Positions 4,797-26,003 of a DNA stretch of 64,000 nt are shown one piece after another. Location: the NCBI GenBank assembly GCA_963555835.3, contig CAUVWZ020000001.1:825540-889539 (forward strand), read 5' to 3'. The notes under the pieces are model-generated. The model made no database searches and was not told the origin of the DNA. It saw nothing but the letters and a program-made list of their open reading frames with translations. The DNA is from Terriglobia bacterium (GTDB taxonomy: Bacteria > Acidobacteriota > Terriglobia > UBA7540 > JAPUME01). The position numbers and the translations under genes were made by a program. Position 1 is the stretch's first letter; each line of letters begins with the position of its first letter.

Positions 4797-5027
4797 CGTT
4801 CGATTAAAGCCCCCCTGGAGAAGTGCCACCAGACTAGCCCTACGAATCGCACGGTGTCAAATACCGACTCCATTTGCTCCCGCCCCACGGATCGACTCGC
4901 CGCCCGGGAAATCAAGAACTCTGGTGACTTCGCCGGTAGGATTCGCTAAGATTAGATAGTAGTGACCGCGGCGGTAGCCCCGGTTGCATTAACGGCTGGC
5001 GTGCAAGGTCGCCAGGGTAAGGTACCC

Positions 5028-5936
5028 ATGCCCGAGAAAGACTCCTCCCGTGAACCTCTTGCCAATCTGGACGAGTGGGAAGACTTTCTGAAAGACCGCT
5101 ATCCGCCCGAATCACAGCCCCGTACCCACGATTCGAAACCCTTCGTCGCTATCGACCCCAATAAGAAGGCGGGGGAGTTTCGCGACTACCGTGCCGAAGC
5201 GCGCAGCTCCGTAAAGGAGTTTTACCTGCTGAATCATACCCGCCAAACTCTGGATTTCGTTCGCGGCAAGAGGCAGGAATACTTGTCCGCCTCAAGGCGT
5301 TCGATGAGCGTTTGGGAGGCGATGGAGGCGCTCGATGCGCTGGTCGATGACAGCGACCCGGATACCGATCTGCCTCAGATCGAGCATTATTTCCAGACCG
5401 CCGAGGCCATCCGCAAGGCCGGCCATCCCGGCTGGTTCATTCTGACCGGCTTCATCCACGATCTCGGAAAGGTCCTCTGCCTGTTCGGTGAACCGCAATG
5501 GGCGGTGGTCGGTGATACCTTTCCGGTGGGTTGCGCCTTTTCCGACAAGATCGTATTTCCGGAGTTCTTCGCCGAGAACCCAGACTCGAAGGTCGCCGAA
5601 TATCGGACGCGGCTGGGAGTCTATGAGGAAAACTGCGGGCTGGACCGCGTGAATATGTCCTGGGGGCACGACGAGTATCTCTATCACGTCGTCAAGGATT
5701 ACCTGCCCGATGAATCACTCTATATGATCCGCTATCACTCCTTCTACCCGGCCCACCGGGAAGGAGAATATACCTGCCTGATGAACCAACGCGACCGGGA
5801 GATGTTCGCCTGGGTGCGGAAGTTCAATCCCTTCGACCTCTATTCGAAAAGCAAAGAGAGACCCAACCAGAAAGAGATCCGACCTTTCTACGAAGAGCTG
5901 GTCTCCGAGTTCCTGCCCGCCAAACTCCGCTGGTGA
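5028..5936 (+). CDS. myo-Inositol oxygenase (MIOX, HD-domain di-iron oxygenase)
   Basis: ORF 4962..5936 has the MIOX signature blocks [21 protein letters not shown] and the C-terminal ...LPAKLRW. The ATG at 5028 has AAGG about 7 nt upstream. Confidence 0.8.
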
Positions 5937-19477: not shown

Positions 19478-20083
19478 TTAGCCGGCCCTGCCGACCAGGG
19501 AGAGGAACTCGTCGCGGGTCTGCTTCTTGTCTCGGAACACCCCGAGCATGGCGGAGGTGACGGTAACGGAGTTCTGTTTCTGGACGCCGCGCATGATCAT
19601 GCAAAGATGCTGCGCCTCCATCACCACGCCCACACCCAGGGGATTGATCTTTTCCATCAGCACCTGGGCCACCTGGGTCGTAAGGCGTTCCTGCACTTGC
19701 AGCCGCCGGGCGAAAACGTCCACAAGGCGCGCTATCTTGCTGAGCCCTATCACCTTGCGGCTCGGGATATAGGCCACGTGGCACTTGCCGATAAACGGAA
19801 GCAGGTGATGCTCACAGAGGCTGAAGACCTCGATATCCCGGACGATGATCATTTCGTCATGGGTTACCTCGTAGAGGGCGCCGTTCAAGACCTGGTCCAC
19901 GTCCTCCTGGTAGCCCTTGGTGAGGAAGCGAAGTGATTCGGCGACACGGCGAGGTGTGCGCTCCAGTCCGTCTCGATCCGGGTCCTCACCGAGTTCCACC
20001 AGCAGATTCCGAGCGAGGCTTTCCAGCCGATCGTCCTCTTTCCCGGTCGATAAGAGAGTTTCCGAAAGATTCTCTGTATTCAT
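19478..20083 (-). CDS. folE: GTP cyclohydrolase I
   Basis: 201-aa ORF with [20 protein letters not shown] and QERLT motifs of FolE type 1. Confidence 0.9.
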
Positions 20084-20135
20084 GATAGCGACTCCAATCC
20101 CACCCAGCGCCAGGGTTCCCGGCGTCCGTCAACGT

Positions 20136-20561
20136 TCATTCGGTATATTCAAAAGAATTGGCATAGGTTTCCTCCATTCGAATCCGTGCCAATGTAACTT
20201 CTCTGCGGGGACACTCCTTTTCCATGCGAACCTTTAACAGGCGGTAGATCTCCCTGCAAAGATTTTCTGTGGTGGGAATCTGGGTGCGGAAATTTTCCAC
20301 GTCCTGATTCAGGTGGGTATGATCGAACCGATCCACGACTTCCTCCCCCACCCAGCGGTCCAGCTTGCCAAGGTCAAGAACCATGCCGGTTTGCGGGTCC
20401 ACCGGCCCGGCAACGGTCACCTCCACCGCGTAGTTGTGCCCATGCCCATAGGGGTTATTACACTTCCCGTAGAGGGCCGCATTCTCCTCACTGCTCAACG
20501 CCCCATTATGCAGGCGATGCGACGCCGAGAAGCGGTACCGACGTGTCAGGTAGACTTTCAT
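20136..20561 (-). CDS. 6-pyruvoyl-tetrahydropterin / 6-carboxytetrahydropterin synthase family (PTPS/QueD), paralog B
   Basis: 141-aa ORF with FSASHRL and GKCNNPYGHGHNY (Cx3HGH zinc/catalytic motif). It overlaps paralog A by 4 nt. Confidence 0.85.
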   Translation of the reverse strand: MKVYLTRRYRFSASHRLHNGALSSEENAALYGKCNNPYGHGHNYAVEVTVAGPVDPQTGMVLDLGKLDRWVGEEVVDRFDHTHLNQDVENFRTQIPTTENLCREIYRLLKVRMEKECPRREVTLARIRMEETYANSFEYTE

Positions 20562-20965
20562 TCCCCTAAGTAATCCACGAAAAGGTCCGTCGTCTCATAG
20601 AGGCGAACCCGGTGAAGCTTCCCGACCGAAAGTTTCCCTTTCAAACGGTTCCAGATCTCCAGCGCAATGTTCTCCGTTGTAGGGATCTTCTCGTCGAAAA
20701 CGCGGACCTCCTTGTTCAGAAACTTGTGATCGAAGGGCTGCAGGACTTCCTGCTCCAGCAACGCCTTCAGGTCTTTCAAATCTATTACCATGCCGCTTCT
20801 CTCGTCCACCTCGCCCGAAACCGTCACCTCGACGACGTAATTATGACCGTGTCCGTGGGGATTGTTGCACTTGCCGAAAAGTCGCCGATTCTCCTCCGCG
20901 CTCATCTCCGGGTTGTGGTAGAAGTGTGAAGCGGAAAACTCAGCCTTGCGGGTCAAGTAGACCAT
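20558..20965 (-). CDS. 6-pyruvoyl-tetrahydropterin / 6-carboxytetrahydropterin synthase family (PTPS/QueD), paralog A
   Basis: 135-aa ORF with FSASHFY and GKCNNPHGHGHNY. It is the first gene of the minus-strand cluster. Confidence 0.85.
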   Translation of the reverse strand: MVYLTRKAEFSASHFYHNPEMSAEENRRLFGKCNNPHGHGHNYVVEVTVSGEVDERSGMVIDLKDLKALLEQEVLQPFDHKFLNKEVRVFDEKIPTTENIALEIWNRLKGKLSVGKLHRVRLYETTDLFVDYLGE

Positions 20966-22686: not shown

Positions 22687-23967
22687 ATGAATCCATCTAA
22701 TCCTCTGCCCGCATTCCACCGCCTGAAGAGGACGGGGCCGGCAATGGCCGCATTGCCTCAGCTCGCCCAAACGGTCCGGGAAGCTCTGGCAGCGTTGAAA
22801 ATGGAGCGTGAAAAGCTTCAGGGAAAGAACATCGCCCTAACCGTCGGCAGCCGCGGGATTGCAAACCTCTCTCTGCTGGTTCGGACCGTGGGGGAGTGGT
22901 TGAAAGCTTCCGGGGCGCGACCCTTCATCGTTCCCTCCATGGGGAGCCATGGGGGCGCAACACCTGAGGGCCAGCGGAAAGTGCTGGCCGATTACGGCAT
23001 CACCGAAGAAGAGTTGGGCATCCCCGTGCGCTCTCAGATGGAGGCCGTTCACCTGGGAAACACGCCCGAGGGGTTCGATGTCTTTATGGACCAGCTGGCT
23101 TATGAGTCGGACGGCGTGGTGGTATTCAACCGCATCAAAACCCACACGGACTTCAGCGGCCGGATTGAAAGCGGCTGGCTCAAGATGCTGGCGATCGGGC
23201 TCGGCAAGGTGCAGGGCGCAAGGACGTGCCACCGCTACTGCCGCCAGTACGGCTACGAGAAATCCATCCGGGCCATGGGAAGCTGGTCGCTCGCGAGCGG
23301 AAAGATTCTTTGCGGAGTCGGTGTGATTGAAAATGAGGAGCACGAAATTTGCGCTGTTCGGACCGCCCGGCCGGACCAGTTGATCCAAACAGAAGAGGAA
23401 GCTCTGATACTGGCTCGGAAACTCCTTCCGCGGCTTCCGTTTCGGAATATCGACCTGTTGATCGTCGATCAGCTCGGCAAGAACATCAGCGGCACCGGAT
23501 TCGACACCAAGGTGATCGGGCGCGGCGTGCCACTGGAACCGAATGAGGCACCCGAGATCAAATTGATCTACCTGCGGGATATTACTCCGGAGAGCGAAGG
23601 CAACGCCCTCGGCATCGGTATGGCCGACTTTATGCACGAGCGCTGCTTCCGCAAGGTCGACCTCAAGAAGACCTACATCAACACGCAGGCGGCGCTCAAT
23701 CCGCCCATGGGCTTTCTGCCCATGCACTTTCCCTCGGATGCGGAAGCGGTGCGGTTCGCCCTGAACGTGCTGGGGGACAGGGACAAGAGCCACAGCCGCG
23801 TCGCCTGGATCAAGAACACACTGCTGCTGAGCGAAATTCTTGCCTCCGATGCGCTCCTGACTAACGGTCCCTCCTCAGGGGTTTACCTCAGCGCACAATC
23901 TACAATCACTCCATCCTTCGACGCGGAAGACAATCTCGTATCCGGTTGGGAGGGTTCGAATGAATAG
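22687..23967 (+). CDS. Conserved protein of uncertain function (LarA-N/DUF2088-like by recollection); its 3' end carries the left copy of the cassette direct repeat
   Basis: ORF 22654..23967, likely start MNPSNPL at 22687. Conserved-looking blocks are PSMGSHGGATPEGQ, NRIKTHTDFSG.IESGWLKML and GLGKVQGA. The family assignment is from memory and not certain. Confidence 0.5.
   Translation: MNPSNPLPAFHRLKRTGPAMAALPQLAQTVREALAALKMEREKLQGKNIALTVGSRGIANLSLLVRTVGEWLKASGARPFIVPSMGSHGGATPEGQRKVLADYGITEEELGIPVRSQMEAVHLGNTPEGFDVFMDQLAYESDGVVVFNRIKTHTDFSGRIESGWLKMLAIGLGKVQGARTCHRYCRQYGYEKSIRAMGSWSLASGKILCGVGVIENEEHEICAVRTARPDQLIQTEEEALILARKLLPRLPFRNIDLLIVDQLGKNISGTGFDTKVIGRGVPLEPNEAPEIKLIYLRDITPESEGNALGIGMADFMHERCFRKVDLKKTYINTQAALNPPMGFLPMHFPSDAEAVRFALNVLGDRDKSHSRVAWIKNTLLLSEILASDALLTNGPSSGVYLSAQSTITPSFDAEDNLVSGWEGSNE
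23934..23953. repeat. Left copy of a perfect 20-bp direct repeat TCTCGTATCCGGTTGGGAGG (attL-like)
   Basis: Exact match to 24922-24941. It lies in the last codons (NLVSGWE) of the 22687..23967 CDS. Confidence 0.95.
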
Positions 23968-24005
23968 TGCACTGGAATCAACCTAATAAGAGATAGTAAA
24001 CGTGC

Positions 24006-24422
24006 ATGAATCGTTCAGATTTACAAAAGCTAGCCTCCTTGCGCATTAAAGACGCAAAGACTTTACTCGACAATGATCGCTACGAGGGATCTTACTATTT
24101 AGCGGGATACGCGGTGGAATGCGCACTTAAGGCCTGTATTGCTAAGAAGACCAAACGCTTTGATTTTCCAGATAAAGAGCTTGCCAATAAGAGTTACACT
24201 CATAAGTTAGGGGACTTGGTCAGGCTGGCTGGAATGGAAGGTGAGCTCCGGAAAGCAGAGAAATCCAGTAGAGAATTTGAAGAGAACTGGGCTGTCGTCA
24301 AAGACTGGACTGAAGAGCATAGGTACCATACCGATATTTCAAAGAAATTGGCAGGGGACCTTTACTCTGCCATTGTCAGTAAGAAATATGGGGTATTAAC
24401 ATGGCTGAGGAATTCCTGGTAA
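24006..24422 (+). CDS. HEPN-domain protein (classical PF05168-like four-helix type), candidate toxin/effector
   Basis: 138-aa ORF with GSYYLAGYAVECALKACIAKK, YTHKLGDLVRLAG and DWTEEHRYHTD, matching the HEPN pattern (A.E..LKA ... H.L..L ... E.RY). Confidence 0.75.
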   Translation: MNRSDLQKLASLRIKDAKTLLDNDRYEGSYYLAGYAVECALKACIAKKTKRFDFPDKELANKSYTHKLGDLVRLAGMEGELRKAEKSSREFEENWAVVKDWTEEHRYHTDISKKLAGDLYSAIVSKKYGVLTWLRNSW

Positions 24423-24808
24423 AAAATTCTCTAACATCCAGCATGTTAGAAGCAGGCAAGGAACTCACGAGACGCCTTGACCGTGTGGGTTTCAAAGCGG
24501 TGGCTTCATTTTGGCTCTATAACTTGGAAACTAATGAGTGGCGCCTGGTGCTCGCATCCCATCAAGTTGATCGCAAGGGTCCCAAGAAGGCTTACAGCAC
24601 AATCCTGAATGCCCTCTCTAAGAAACCGTCGGAAGAGGTCATCGGACTCAGCCTGCAAAACATCACTCTTACCAGCCCTCTCGATCCACTCATCAAGTCA
24701 CTCAGAACTGCTCTTCGAACGGGAAAGGCATTGTCGGACATCAGGTTCTCTCGCAACAGGATCAACGATCTTTTCATAGAGGACGCATACATCTACCGGG
24801 TCCTATGA
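24401..24808 (+). CDS. Uncharacterised 135-aa protein, overlapping partner of the HEPN gene (not a recognisable MNT nucleotidyltransferase)
   Basis: The ATG at 24401 lies inside the HEPN ORF (22-nt overlap, different frame). Sequence MAEEFLVKNSLTSS...WLYNLETNEWRLVLASHQVDRKGPKKAYSTILNAL...IEDAYIYRVL. No GS..DxD, HTH or RHH motif seen. Confidence 0.6.
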   Translation: MAEEFLVKNSLTSSMLEAGKELTRRLDRVGFKAVASFWLYNLETNEWRLVLASHQVDRKGPKKAYSTILNALSKKPSEEVIGLSLQNITLTSPLDPLIKSLRTALRTGKALSDIRFSRNRINDLFIEDAYIYRVL

Positions 24809-24921
24809 TTTCAGGTGCCAACCCCTTAAAGTGAGGTCGCACTAGCGGCAAATTGTCTCTGACACCGAACGGCGCGTGATACCAAGCGGGACAGGATTGG
24901 TTTCAGGAACCCGGGGAGGAG

Positions 24922-24941
24922 TCTCGTATCCGGTTGGGAGG
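24922..24941. repeat. Right copy of the perfect 20-bp direct repeat (attR-like)
   Basis: Exact match to 23934-23953. Reading on from it gives GAG GCA GAA CAA GCT CCC TGA, an alternative short C-terminus (EAEQAP-stop) for the upstream gene. Confidence 0.95.
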
Positions 24942-25028
24942 CAGAACAAGCTCCCTGAGGCCGGTTTTAGGCGCCGCCCGTAACGGTCGGGATATTCCAT
25001 CAAGTGATCAGGAGGGTCCACGATTCGA

Positions 25029-26003
25029 ATGCAATCTGTTTCCATCCAACCGGCAAGATACGGGATCAGCCTGGCGGGGCTTGTCTTCCTGCTGCTGGTC
25101 TCGCCGCAAGTTGCAGCCGGGGCCGTCGAATGCTTTTCGGTTCCGAGCGAAATCCTGGGCCGCGACGTATCCTACTGTGTGTCTCTGCCGGGCGGCTACC
25201 AGGACTCGACGCGCCGCTATCCGGTGCTCTATTTCCTGCACGGTCTTTTTGAGGAACCCACCAGCTGGGAGGAGCGCGGCGGCGAAGCGATCCTCGAGAA
25301 ACAGAGGCAAGAGGGAAAACTGAGAGATTTTGTGCTGATCCTCCCCGACGGCGGTAGGAGCTTCTACATCAACTCTCACGACGGCAGCGTCGGCTACGAA
25401 GACTTTTTCATTCAGGAGTTTATTCCCTGGATTGACCGAAACTACCGGACCCTGGCGAATGCGGACCACCGCGCGGTGAGCGGCACTTCGATGGGAGGCT
25501 ACGGGGCCCTGCACCTGGGCATGAAGTATCCGCATCTTTTTGGAGCCGCAAGCGCCCACAGCCCCGTACTGGTAACCCAACCCGCGCAACGGGCAAGCTC
25601 TCTTACCGCGCCGCGCCCCAGGAGCAGAAGAATTCAGGAAGAGAACGGCAATCGCAGCGGTCGTGGCAACCGGGGAGGTCGAGGAGGCCGCGGCGGCAAC
25701 TGGAGAATGAGAGCGCTTGAGGGCGCCTTCGGGTCGCCGCCCGACTGGGCCTATTGGCGGGAGAATGATCCGTTGGTTCTTGCCGAACGGCCGCAGGGGT
25801 TCTCACAGCTCAAGCTGTACTTCGACTGCGGGGACGAGGACCGCTACGGATTTGACGAAGGTGCGCGCGAATTGCACCGCGTCTTAGAAGCCAACGGCTT
25901 TGAGCATGAATATGCCATTCGGCCCGGAGATCATGGGTGGAGCTTTCTCGAGCGATATCTGGAAATTTCGCTCCAATTCCATTCAACGCATTTCGCAGAT
26001 TAG
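25029..26003 (+). CDS. Secreted alpha/beta-hydrolase, esterase-D/putative-esterase family, with an Arg/Gly-rich insertion
   Basis: 324-aa ORF with a signal peptide, YPVLYFLHG and the nucleophile elbow GTSMGGYGAL. The insert ...RSRRIQEENGNRSGRGNRGGRGGRGGNWRM... lies between core blocks. Confidence 0.8.
   Translation: MQSVSIQPARYGISLAGLVFLLLVSPQVAAGAVECFSVPSEILGRDVSYCVSLPGGYQDSTRRYPVLYFLHGLFEEPTSWEERGGEAILEKQRQEGKLRDFVLILPDGGRSFYINSHDGSVGYEDFFIQEFIPWIDRNYRTLANADHRAVSGTSMGGYGALHLGMKYPHLFGAASAHSPVLVTQPAQRASSLTAPRPRSRRIQEENGNRSGRGNRGGRGGRGGNWRMRALEGAFGSPPDWAYWRENDPLVLAERPQGFSQLKLYFDCGDEDRYGFDEGARELHRVLEANGFEHEYAIRPGDHGWSFLERYLEISLQFHSTHFAD

Follow-up and report, generated by a model that had tools for sequence, protein, structure and literature searches.

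The gene pair described here occupies positions 24006 to 24808 of a 64,000-nucleotide stretch of DNA from a Terriglobia bacterium of the Acidobacteriota (assembly GCA_963555835.3, contig CAUVWZ020000001.1, positions 825,540 to 889,539 of the forward strand); this whole stretch is referred to below as the window. The first gene of the pair encodes a small HEPN protein and the second, which overlaps its 3′ end, encodes a protein of a family that has so far carried no annotation. Together they constitute a conserved bicistronic module, predicted to be translationally coupled, that has spread horizontally, is mobile over long timescales and is found on prophages and plasmids; the two genes co-occur far beyond chance and are near-obligate companions. 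We propose, with a probability of about one half, that the pair is a type II toxin-antitoxin (TA) or abortive-infection-like module in which the HEPN protein would be the RNase effector and its partner a protein inhibitor. The features on which the description rests are the following.

24006..24422, forward strand: HEPN gene, 138 amino acids (aa), of the HEPN-T class (AF0298/ST0689-like), without the Rx4-6H motif
24401..24808, forward strand: partner gene, 135 aa, an α/β family without annotation
24401..24422, forward strand: dual-coding overlap of 22 nt; the partner ATG falls on the W133 codon of the HEPN gene (xATGG), whose stop codon comes after W138
24390..24394, forward strand: Shine-Dalgarno-like GGGGT, 7-11 nt before the partner ATG, in the codons of the conserved HEPN residues G129-V130; putative in its function

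Both open reading frames (ORFs) lie where a first-pass annotation of the DNA had placed them, the ATG of the partner being 22 nt inside the HEPN gene, and the three motifs quoted in that annotation (YYLAGYAVECALKA, THKLGDL and WTEEHRY) are all present in the HEPN ORF.

Pairing and overlap of the two genes

The association was assessed in 80 HEPN-baited loci taken from GTDB with one genome per species, for which at least 572 relatives were confirmed and all ORFs were scored with the hidden Markov models (HMMs) of both families. The partner lies directly 3′ of the HEPN gene in 79 of these loci, the single miss being cut by a contig end; in IMG/VR, the same bait retrieves it on 39 of 40 viral contigs, and loci baited with the partner have the HEPN gene upstream in all cases. 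The neighbourhood survey that had been suggested at the outset thus confirms that the partner travels with this HEPN clade. The earlier description of the gene order as “reversed”, by reference to HEPN genes that lie downstream of a minimal nucleotidyltransferase (MNT) antitoxin, does not hold: the clade is never found with an MNT, its loci being occupied by the partner, and its architecture is a separate one. The fortieth viral contig (locus L139, IMGVR_UViG_2643221870_000001, 4827-5791) carries a highly diverged HEPN (32% identity, with no conservation at the R106 position) that overlaps by 25 nt with a 169-aa ORF displaying a partner-like W...W...GP..Y pattern, which suggests that the HEPN-partner association reaches beyond HMM detection.

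The geometry of the overlap is kept across the family. Of about 82 loci, 70 have an overlap of 22 nt and 5 more one of 7 nt (ATGGTAR); the partner ATG takes the A preceding the TGG codon of W133 in the 22-nt form, or of W138 in the 7-nt form, and a GGAGT, GGGGT or GGGAT element stands 7-12 nt 5′ of the partner ATG in most loci. Overlap and Shine-Dalgarno-like element amount to a deep conservation of predicted translational coupling, and the coupling that the first-pass annotation had proposed from the overlap gains support from both. A fusion by programmed -1 frameshifting was considered and set aside, as the overlap contains no slippery heptamer. At two loci (L038, around 6396, and L059, around 2580), single substitutions in the common ATGG (ATG to ACG; TGG to TAG) remove the partner start codon and HEPN W133 at once, which exemplifies how both genes constrain the overlap.

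Averaged over pairwise comparisons, identity amounts to 49.8% for the HEPN protein and 34.2% for its partner, the HEPN being the more conserved of the two in 98% of comparisons, and the identities of the two proteins between loci are correlated (r=0.60). One 261-aa representative (P0244) is a single-chain HEPN-partner fusion, scoring 30.9 bits with PF05168; it may be a true fusion or reflect a 1-nt assembly error at a 7-nt overlap. In generic terms, two small, co-oriented and adjacent genes conserved together across unrelated contexts are what is found in type II pairs, and this is the arrangement seen here.

The HEPN protein and its putative active site

The HEPN assignment, made at first from the sequence motifs, is upheld by profile searches and by structure prediction. 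The protein exceeds the Pfam PF05168 cut-off of 22 bits with a score of 30.4 (E 4.8e-7), aligns across its full length with phrog_5737 (2.8e-41) and matches the PADLOC profile PDC-M28A (7.5e-11). The AlphaFold model, computed with 32 homologues as input (predicted local distance difference test, pLDDT, 91.2; predicted template modelling score, pTM, 0.87), consists entirely of helices, folded into an all-α up-down bundle like that of solved HEPN domains. Foldseek ranks 1wol, 2hsb (AF0298), 1ufb, 1o3u and 2q00 at the top, with probabilities of 0.93-1.0 and template modelling (TM) scores of 0.50-0.69 at E-values of only 0.1-1; Sacsin, Csm6 and AbiV come lower in the list. At the sequence level, HMMER detects no relation between the clade and solved HEPN structures, and the sole relatives in the PDB are the last helices of kanamycin nucleotidyltransferase (KNTase; the C-terminal domain of ANT(4′)-Ia, E 1.7e-3); a bacterioferritin match of the HEPN profile, with E about 1, was put down to chance. 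The homologues of the HEPN protein make up 3,890 clusters at 90% identity.

Residues conserved in at least 95% of 73 non-redundant sequences include R13, Y30, Y31, G34, Y35, E38, C39, K42, C44, F54, P55, H66, W95, W101, R106 and Y107, the polar conserved set being R13, Y31, Y35, E38, K42, H66, R106 and Y107. The window protein reads R106-Y-H108-T-D and is thus without Rx4-6H. In AF0298-type HEPN-T proteins and in AbiV, the Arg of this motif is retained while its His is lost (Anantharaman et al. 2013, PMC3710099); the same authors proposed that a second conserved His, N-terminal in position, forms an alternative RNase site together with the Arg and an acidic residue of helix 2. H66, R106 and E38, all three conserved in at least 95% of the 73 sequences, fit a putative alternative site of this AF0298/AbiV type.

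The partner family

The partner has no match in Pfam, NCBIfam or PADLOC, and its one profile relative is phrog_5760 (function unknown), which it matches weakly over the full length (2.5e-5). While a word-indexed search returns 47 clusters, a profile search against 1.84 billion representatives yields 3,445 proteins with E≤1e-3, of which 1,958 reach E≤1e-10, and almost all are 120-140 aa long; the named members are all “hypothetical protein” and have no precomputed Pfam domains. When 68 diverse members were scanned singly against Pfam, no recurrent family and no nucleotidyltransferase, helix-turn-helix (HTH) or ribbon-helix-helix (RHH) domain appeared at E≤0.1. The first-pass annotation had seen neither MNT hallmarks nor an HTH or RHH DNA-binding motif in the partner, and was right in both respects: Pfam, NCBIfam and PADLOC give no NTP_transf, HTH or RHH match for the window protein, NTP_transf is likewise missing from the 68 members, and the predicted topology is not that of a nucleotidyltransferase. 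Two other leads were discarded. Matches to Kelch (Pfam, E 0.02-0.08) and to the designed protein SAKe (PDB) come down to a single β-hairpin “W-x-x-Y...W” word with zero significant stretches and are spurious; a basic C-terminal tail is not a general trait of the family, the tail being present in 11 of 73 sequences only and mostly not basic.

The AlphaFold model of the partner is confident (pLDDT 89.5, pTM 0.85) and has the order α1(13-28)-β1-β2-α(54-59)-α(61-72)-β3-α3-β4-β5. Foldseek finds nothing with E<0.01 in the PDB or BFVD; the structural check recommended in the first-pass annotation hence yields a well-predicted fold without a significant match in these two databases. The highest-ranking matches, RbfA, BolA, ribosomal protein S3 and Jag, are all weak (best E 0.015 at TM 0.38; TM 0.35-0.52 overall) and have in common with the partner the α-β-β-α-α-β order of type II K-homology (KH)-like domains. 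The two helices of this weakly matching KH-like order flank the conserved G60 of the “GPKK” loop. In at least 95% of 73 homologues, L11, G19, W38, W47, G60, Y65, D128 and Y132 are retained; R115 and Y130 follow at 80-95%.

Distribution and genomic context

Carriers of the pair span at least 12 phyla, including Acidobacteriota, Chloroflexota, Planctomycetota, Gamma- and Deltaproteobacteria and Cyanobacteria, with further hosts in Bacteroidales, Latescibacterota, Nitrospirota, Armatimonadota and others, and one archaeal (Bathyarchaeota) metagenome-assembled genome (MAG). In 83 of 84 loci, the pair is poorer in GC than its flanks (median -8.4 points). In Escherichia coli, the pair is present in 190 of 5,426 complete genomes (3.5%) as copies at least 99% identical, one per chromosome, many of the carriers being of the Shiga toxin-producing E. 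coli (STEC) serotypes O157:H7, O26 and O111; these copies are annotated merely as “HEPN domain-containing protein” and “hypothetical protein”. The one E. coli copy examined (L099, strain EC21Z-014, NZ_CP101274, 7001-7797) belongs to a lambdoid prophage, where it is flanked by P/ren on one side and ybcN-ninE-rusA-quuD on the other. Klebsiella phage Kp4864-1 also carries the pair, on the Acinetobacter plasmid pAJ4131 it adjoins BrnT/BrnA, and at one locus (L002) it sits inside an SNF2/AIPR/methylase island; few cultured phages (1 of 50,697 records) or plasmids (2 of 72,556) contain it. The prophage hotspot, the small plasmid with BrnTA next door and the single island are locations typical of TA and defence modules; most loci lie among housekeeping genes and not in defence islands.

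The nearest two ORFs on each side of about 75 loci are highly diverse: 141 upstream ORFs match 165 different Pfam families and 150 downstream ORFs match 173, none of which occurs more than 3 times. These neighbours include no conserved third gene and no MNT.

A variant with a fused effector domain is carried by the Deinococcus sp. AB2017081 plasmid NZ_CP140099 (L087, 6381-7763), where a 40%-identical HEPN gene is followed, with the 22-nt overlap, by a gene for a 460-aa protein whose residues 1-126 are a partner domain (hhalign probability 99.3) and whose residues 156-376 are DUF3800; this fusion has lost the IEDAY motif that is otherwise conserved at the C-terminus of the partner. DUF3800, a predicted RNase H-like nuclease, serves as effector in type VII retrons and alongside Cas12a2 (PMC7736814, PMC10910872), and from the fusion it follows that the partner domain is modular and able to bring a nuclease to the HEPN protein.

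At one locus (L029, 6262-6700), an intact pair gives way directly to a tandem series of remains from additional copies, namely HEPN 3′ ends and a partner of 77 aa with an internal deletion; a similar spacer of about 45 nt comes after each of them.

Proposed function and alternative explanations

In the proposed TA or abortive-infection-like module, the HEPN protein would be an RNA-targeting effector acting through the alternative site (E38 of helix 2, the inserted H66 and R106-Y107) and the downstream 135-aa protein would be its cognate inhibitor. As the final 33 nt of the HEPN gene, counted from the GGGGT at 24390, contain both the putative ribosome-binding site of the partner and its start codon, the partner would be made whenever the HEPN protein is made; its loss or titration upon element loss, stress or phage infection would free the HEPN protein, resulting in RNA cleavage and growth arrest. 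In modules of this kind, the HEPN fold nearly always supplies the nuclease, and we take this to favour the HEPN protein as the effector. The same distribution of roles is favoured by a slow-evolving upstream gene followed by a fast-evolving downstream gene, by the coupling, which would ensure that the partner accompanies the HEPN protein, by the family-wide median isoelectric points (8.9 for the HEPN and 6.1 for the partner, with a wide spread) and by three decayed loci (L057, with R106G in addition, L079 and L026) whose HEPN gene has substitution stop codons and whose partner gene is intact. The P0244 fusion, the co-evolution of the two proteins and the HEPN-first decay at these three loci were also counted in favour of a TA or abortive-infection module.

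Several observations weigh against this proposal. The Rx4-6H motif is absent family-wide: R106 is invariant while positions R+4 to R+6 are variable, His occurring there in 10 of the 73 sequences and at +4 only, so that no His is kept and the caution of the first-pass annotation, which had left the catalytic status open on account of the non-canonical motif, proves justified; catalysis at the E38/H66/R106 site is a proposal made for this class of HEPN domains. A DNA-binding domain is usual in type II antitoxins, though not obligatory in all type II systems, and is missing here, no HTH, RHH or AbrB domain being found in the window partner or in 68 members of its family. The two window proteins are both basic, with isoelectric points of 9.1 and 9.7. 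The neighbours of the pair are mostly housekeeping genes, and PADLOC matches next door, on the downstream side, are sporadic. The DUF3800 fusion suggests that the partner side can itself carry an effector. At two loci (L058 and L040), a frameshifted partner accompanies an intact HEPN gene, which, if real, speaks against a constitutively toxic HEPN protein; these frameshifts may be errors, as the MAGs appear, judging by their names only, to be long-read assemblies. Finally, RNase activity, toxicity, physical binding, the direction of neutralisation and a role in defence are what we infer. Of the original call of a candidate TA or defence module, the computable parts stand (the pairing, the non-MNT nature of the partner and the locations), and the TA or defence function itself keeps the status of a candidate label.

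Three other explanations deserve consideration. The pair could be a two-protein anti-phage system and not a TA module, in which the proteins would rest as a complex, neither being toxic alone, and the partner would act as a sensor or adaptor that activates or targets the HEPN protein (or another nuclease) once a phage infects. This explanation, which we hold to be unlikely but worth serious attention, draws on the location of the pair in a prophage accessory hotspot in E. coli and Klebsiella, on the precedent of HepS, a solo HEPN protein from the same kind of hotspot that is non-toxic until triggered (PMC13043305), on the locus inside the SNF2/AIPR/methylase island and on the PADLOC candidate PDC-M28A as the nearest HEPN profile; the fusion of the Deinococcus partner domain to DUF3800, a known effector domain, also keeps it alive. 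It is harder to reconcile with the small size of the partner, which has no recognisable sensor domain, and with the genomic record, since no obligate or consistent defence-island context exists across about 80 genomes; the strict coupling and the faster-evolving downstream gene are, moreover, more typical of TA pairs. A markedly more doubtful explanation is that of a two-subunit enzyme or RNA-binding complex, where the HEPN protein, comparable to the C-terminal domain of KNTase or to sacsin, would bind nucleotides or RNA without being catalytic, and the partner would provide activity or specificity. Such a complex would be in keeping with the absence of Rx4-6H, with the resemblance of the C-terminal helices of the HEPN protein to the ANT(4′)-Ia C-terminal domain and with its invariant E38-x3-K42, which we take to be like the E145/K149 pair of KNTase; on the partner side, it would be in keeping with the near-invariance of D128, Y132 and Y65, the slightly lower conservation of Y130 and R115, and the type II KH-like RNA-binding folds at the top of the weak Foldseek matches. 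However, none of these KH-like matches reaches significance, the partner is the faster-evolving of the two proteins and has neither the motif nor the fold of a nucleotidyltransferase, and the mobile, patchy and low-GC distribution of the pair points to a selfish or conflict module more readily than to a housekeeping enzyme.

That the partner is a highly divergent MNT, and the locus a HepT/MntA-like HEPN-MNT pair with inverted order, is very improbable and has been largely refuted. HEPN proteins of PF05168 are indeed often paired with MNTs (PMC3710099), and two chains of the HepT/MntA complex (7ae2_B and 7ae9_E; whether these are MNT or HEPN chains was not checked) appear far down the Foldseek list of the partner, but they reach just TM 0.27-0.33 and probabilities of 0.16-0.23. 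Neither the window partner nor any of the 68 members has a nucleotidyltransferase match in Pfam or NCBIfam at E≤0.1, the G-S...DxD motif is absent, and a β1-β2 hairpin occupies the place where a nucleotidyltransferase has β-α-β; this identity was rejected on both sequence and fold.

A further question is how far the module differs from described ones. We consider it somewhat short of an even bet that the partner, as a large (about 3,400 clusters) and new family without annotation or recognisable fold and as the obligate companion of a non-canonical HEPN clade, forms with that clade a new class of HEPN conflict module whose mechanism of neutralisation or activation is unlike MNT-mediated AMPylation, an RNA antitoxin or RnlB. 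One option within such a class is that the partner may be a KH-like RNA-binding protein or an adaptor gating the alternative HEPN site, exchangeable for or fusable with nucleases such as DUF3800.

The islet in the window

In the window, the pair lies in an islet with a GC content of 0.43-0.47, against 0.57-0.62 on both sides, for which three further features can be given.

23934..23953, no strand: left direct repeat, perfect over 20 nt (TCTCGTATCCGGTTGGGAGG), inside the 3′ end of the upstream Lar_N-like gene; spacing of the repeats 988 nt
24922..24941, no strand: right direct repeat, second copy of TCTCGTATCCGGTTGGGAGG; the stretch after it, 24942-24982, is homologous to the 3′ tail that the Lar_N-like gene had originally, as seen upstream of the pair in relative L089
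23987..24819, forward strand: minimal cassette common to the window and L089, a low-GC block defined by BLAST boundaries, junction sequences and the GC profile

The left repeat sits in the last codons of the Lar_N-like gene, which then acquires a new 4-residue end (GSNE, stop), while the sequence 3′ of the right repeat would restore an alternative in-frame C-terminus. The cassette begins with TAAGAGATAGTAA at 23987, the final base of which is 6 nt before the HEPN ATG, and ends with TTTCAGGTGCC, the 11 nt directly after the partner stop, up to 24819. A relative with 88% nucleotide identity (L089) carries the pair at the same site with other junctions: its Lar_N-like gene passes through its own copy of the repeat and the 41-nt tail straight into the cassette (window 24922-24982 and L089 4922-4981 being 78.7% identical), and the cassette abuts a Redoxin gene. 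The segment 24820-26017 of the window, which comprises about 100 nt, the second repeat, the tail and an esterase gene (25029-26003), is missing in L089 and constitutes a second insertion or deletion beside the pair. Between the window and L089, the cassette (87.9% identity) and its flanks (88.1%) are equally diverged; the pair is therefore an old resident of the site, since rearranged, and not a recent arrival. The first-pass description of a mobile-looking islet is thus accurate as to the GC dip and the 20-nt direct repeats, and does not extend to recent mobility, given the presence of the pair at the same site in L089.

No integrase, recombinase or transposase was found near the pair in the window, which also has no terminator, no promoter above background and no Rfam match; window 24809-24945 folds no better than shuffled sequences (z +0.4 and +0.7) and so contains no attC-type hairpin. 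Across loci, no conserved promoter, operator or attC motif is visible in the cassette flanks. The junction expected for an empty site, with the Lar_N gene joined straight to its original tail, is GACAATCTCGTATCCGGTTGGGAGGCAGAACAAGC; in the search for such a site, the Lar_N-like protein gave no relative in the Joint Genome Institute (JGI) metagenomes, and a DNA pattern of the Lar_N tail gave 3 chance matches without homology.

Flanking repeats also occur at other loci. Two Deltaproteobacteria MAGs have the pair between direct repeats, one of 85 nt (L040, 5797-5881 and 6828-6912, 99% identity, hairpin z -7.6) and one of 176 nt (L046, 5630-5805 and 6951-7126, 93% identity); these may be attC-like, or else like repetitive extragenic palindromes (REP) or miniature inverted-repeat transposable elements (MITE). 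A 19-nt repeat brackets the cassette at L006. Further upstream in the window, on the reverse strand at 19478-20965, a gene for GTP cyclohydrolase I and two tandem 6-pyruvoyl-tetrahydropterin synthase (QueD-like) paralogues form a housekeeping context that is kept in relatives.

Comparison with known systems and significance

The closest structural counterparts of the HEPN protein are the HEPN-T proteins AF0298, ST0689 and TT1696 (PF05168; 2hsb, 1wol and 1ufb), with which it shares fold, size, the retained Arg, the missing motif His, the N-terminal His and the acidic residue of helix 2. Whereas an MNT, separate or fused, is their typical companion, the present clade is always followed by the new partner and never by an MNT. 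HepT/MntA, a type VII TA system, is likewise a two-gene mobile module with a small HEPN protein and is abundant in environmental bacteria; HepT is of the DUF86 class, has an Rx4HxY motif and is neutralised through AMPylation by the MNT encoded upstream (PMC7641770). The present pair differs from it in having no MNT and no Rx4-6H and in placing the HEPN gene first.

In gene order, the pair resembles RnlA-RnlB and LsoA-LsoB, which act in phage defence and in which the HEPN toxin gene is upstream and the gene of a small protein antitoxin downstream (PMC8266594). RnlA is, however, a multidomain protein with a canonical motif, and no sequence or fold similarity between the partner and RnlB surfaced in PDB searches. 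AbiV of Lactococcus has been grouped with AF0298-type HEPN-T for its alternative His (PMC3710099) and also has a second element downstream; in AbiV, this antitoxin is an RNA (type III), whereas the downstream gene of the present pair encodes a conserved, foldable protein, and the HEPN protein of the window matches the AbiV models only below their cut-offs (HEPN_AbiV 13.4 bits against 27.1; TIGR04498 16.5 against 27).

The PADLOC candidate PDC-M28 is probably a sister family. Its component A is a 138-position HEPN profile that matches the window HEPN protein and its E. coli, Klebsiella and Acinetobacter relatives with 28.6-40.7 bits, far below the scores within the family; neither PDC-M28B nor any other PADLOC model matches the partner, as judged from five partners of four genera and the Deinococcus fusion protein. 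HepS of Gifsy-1 is comparable as a small prophage-borne HEPN protein of a lambdoid accessory region (PMC13043305), but it has a canonical R100-H105 motif, acts solo without a co-occurring partner and is not among the fold matches of the window HEPN protein. RemAIN, DS-28, DS-11, Butters gp57r and NetFlax were considered and are different systems. Full-text literature searches yielded no account of the pair, PDC-M28 or the E. coli accessions (WP_001038620 and WP_000520499), and the accessions are absent from the DefensePredictor supplements. What is new here is a HEPN conflict module with a partner from a new, unannotated family; the HEPN side belongs to the known HEPN-T class.

HEPN nucleases are central effectors of TA, abortive-infection and CRISPR systems, and how each of them is restrained is a key mechanistic question. 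The clade described here has thousands of members in at least 12 phyla, controlled by, or working with, a “dark” partner family. Characterising the pair would give a function to this large family, would test whether the alternative E/H/R site is catalytic and would possibly add a new prophage-borne module of defence or addiction. Thanks to the copy in E. coli prophages, these questions can be put to a direct test in a model host, and the interest of the system lies in its being a widespread, tightly coupled and E. coli-tractable module that is carried by STEC serotypes (O157:H7, O26 and O111).

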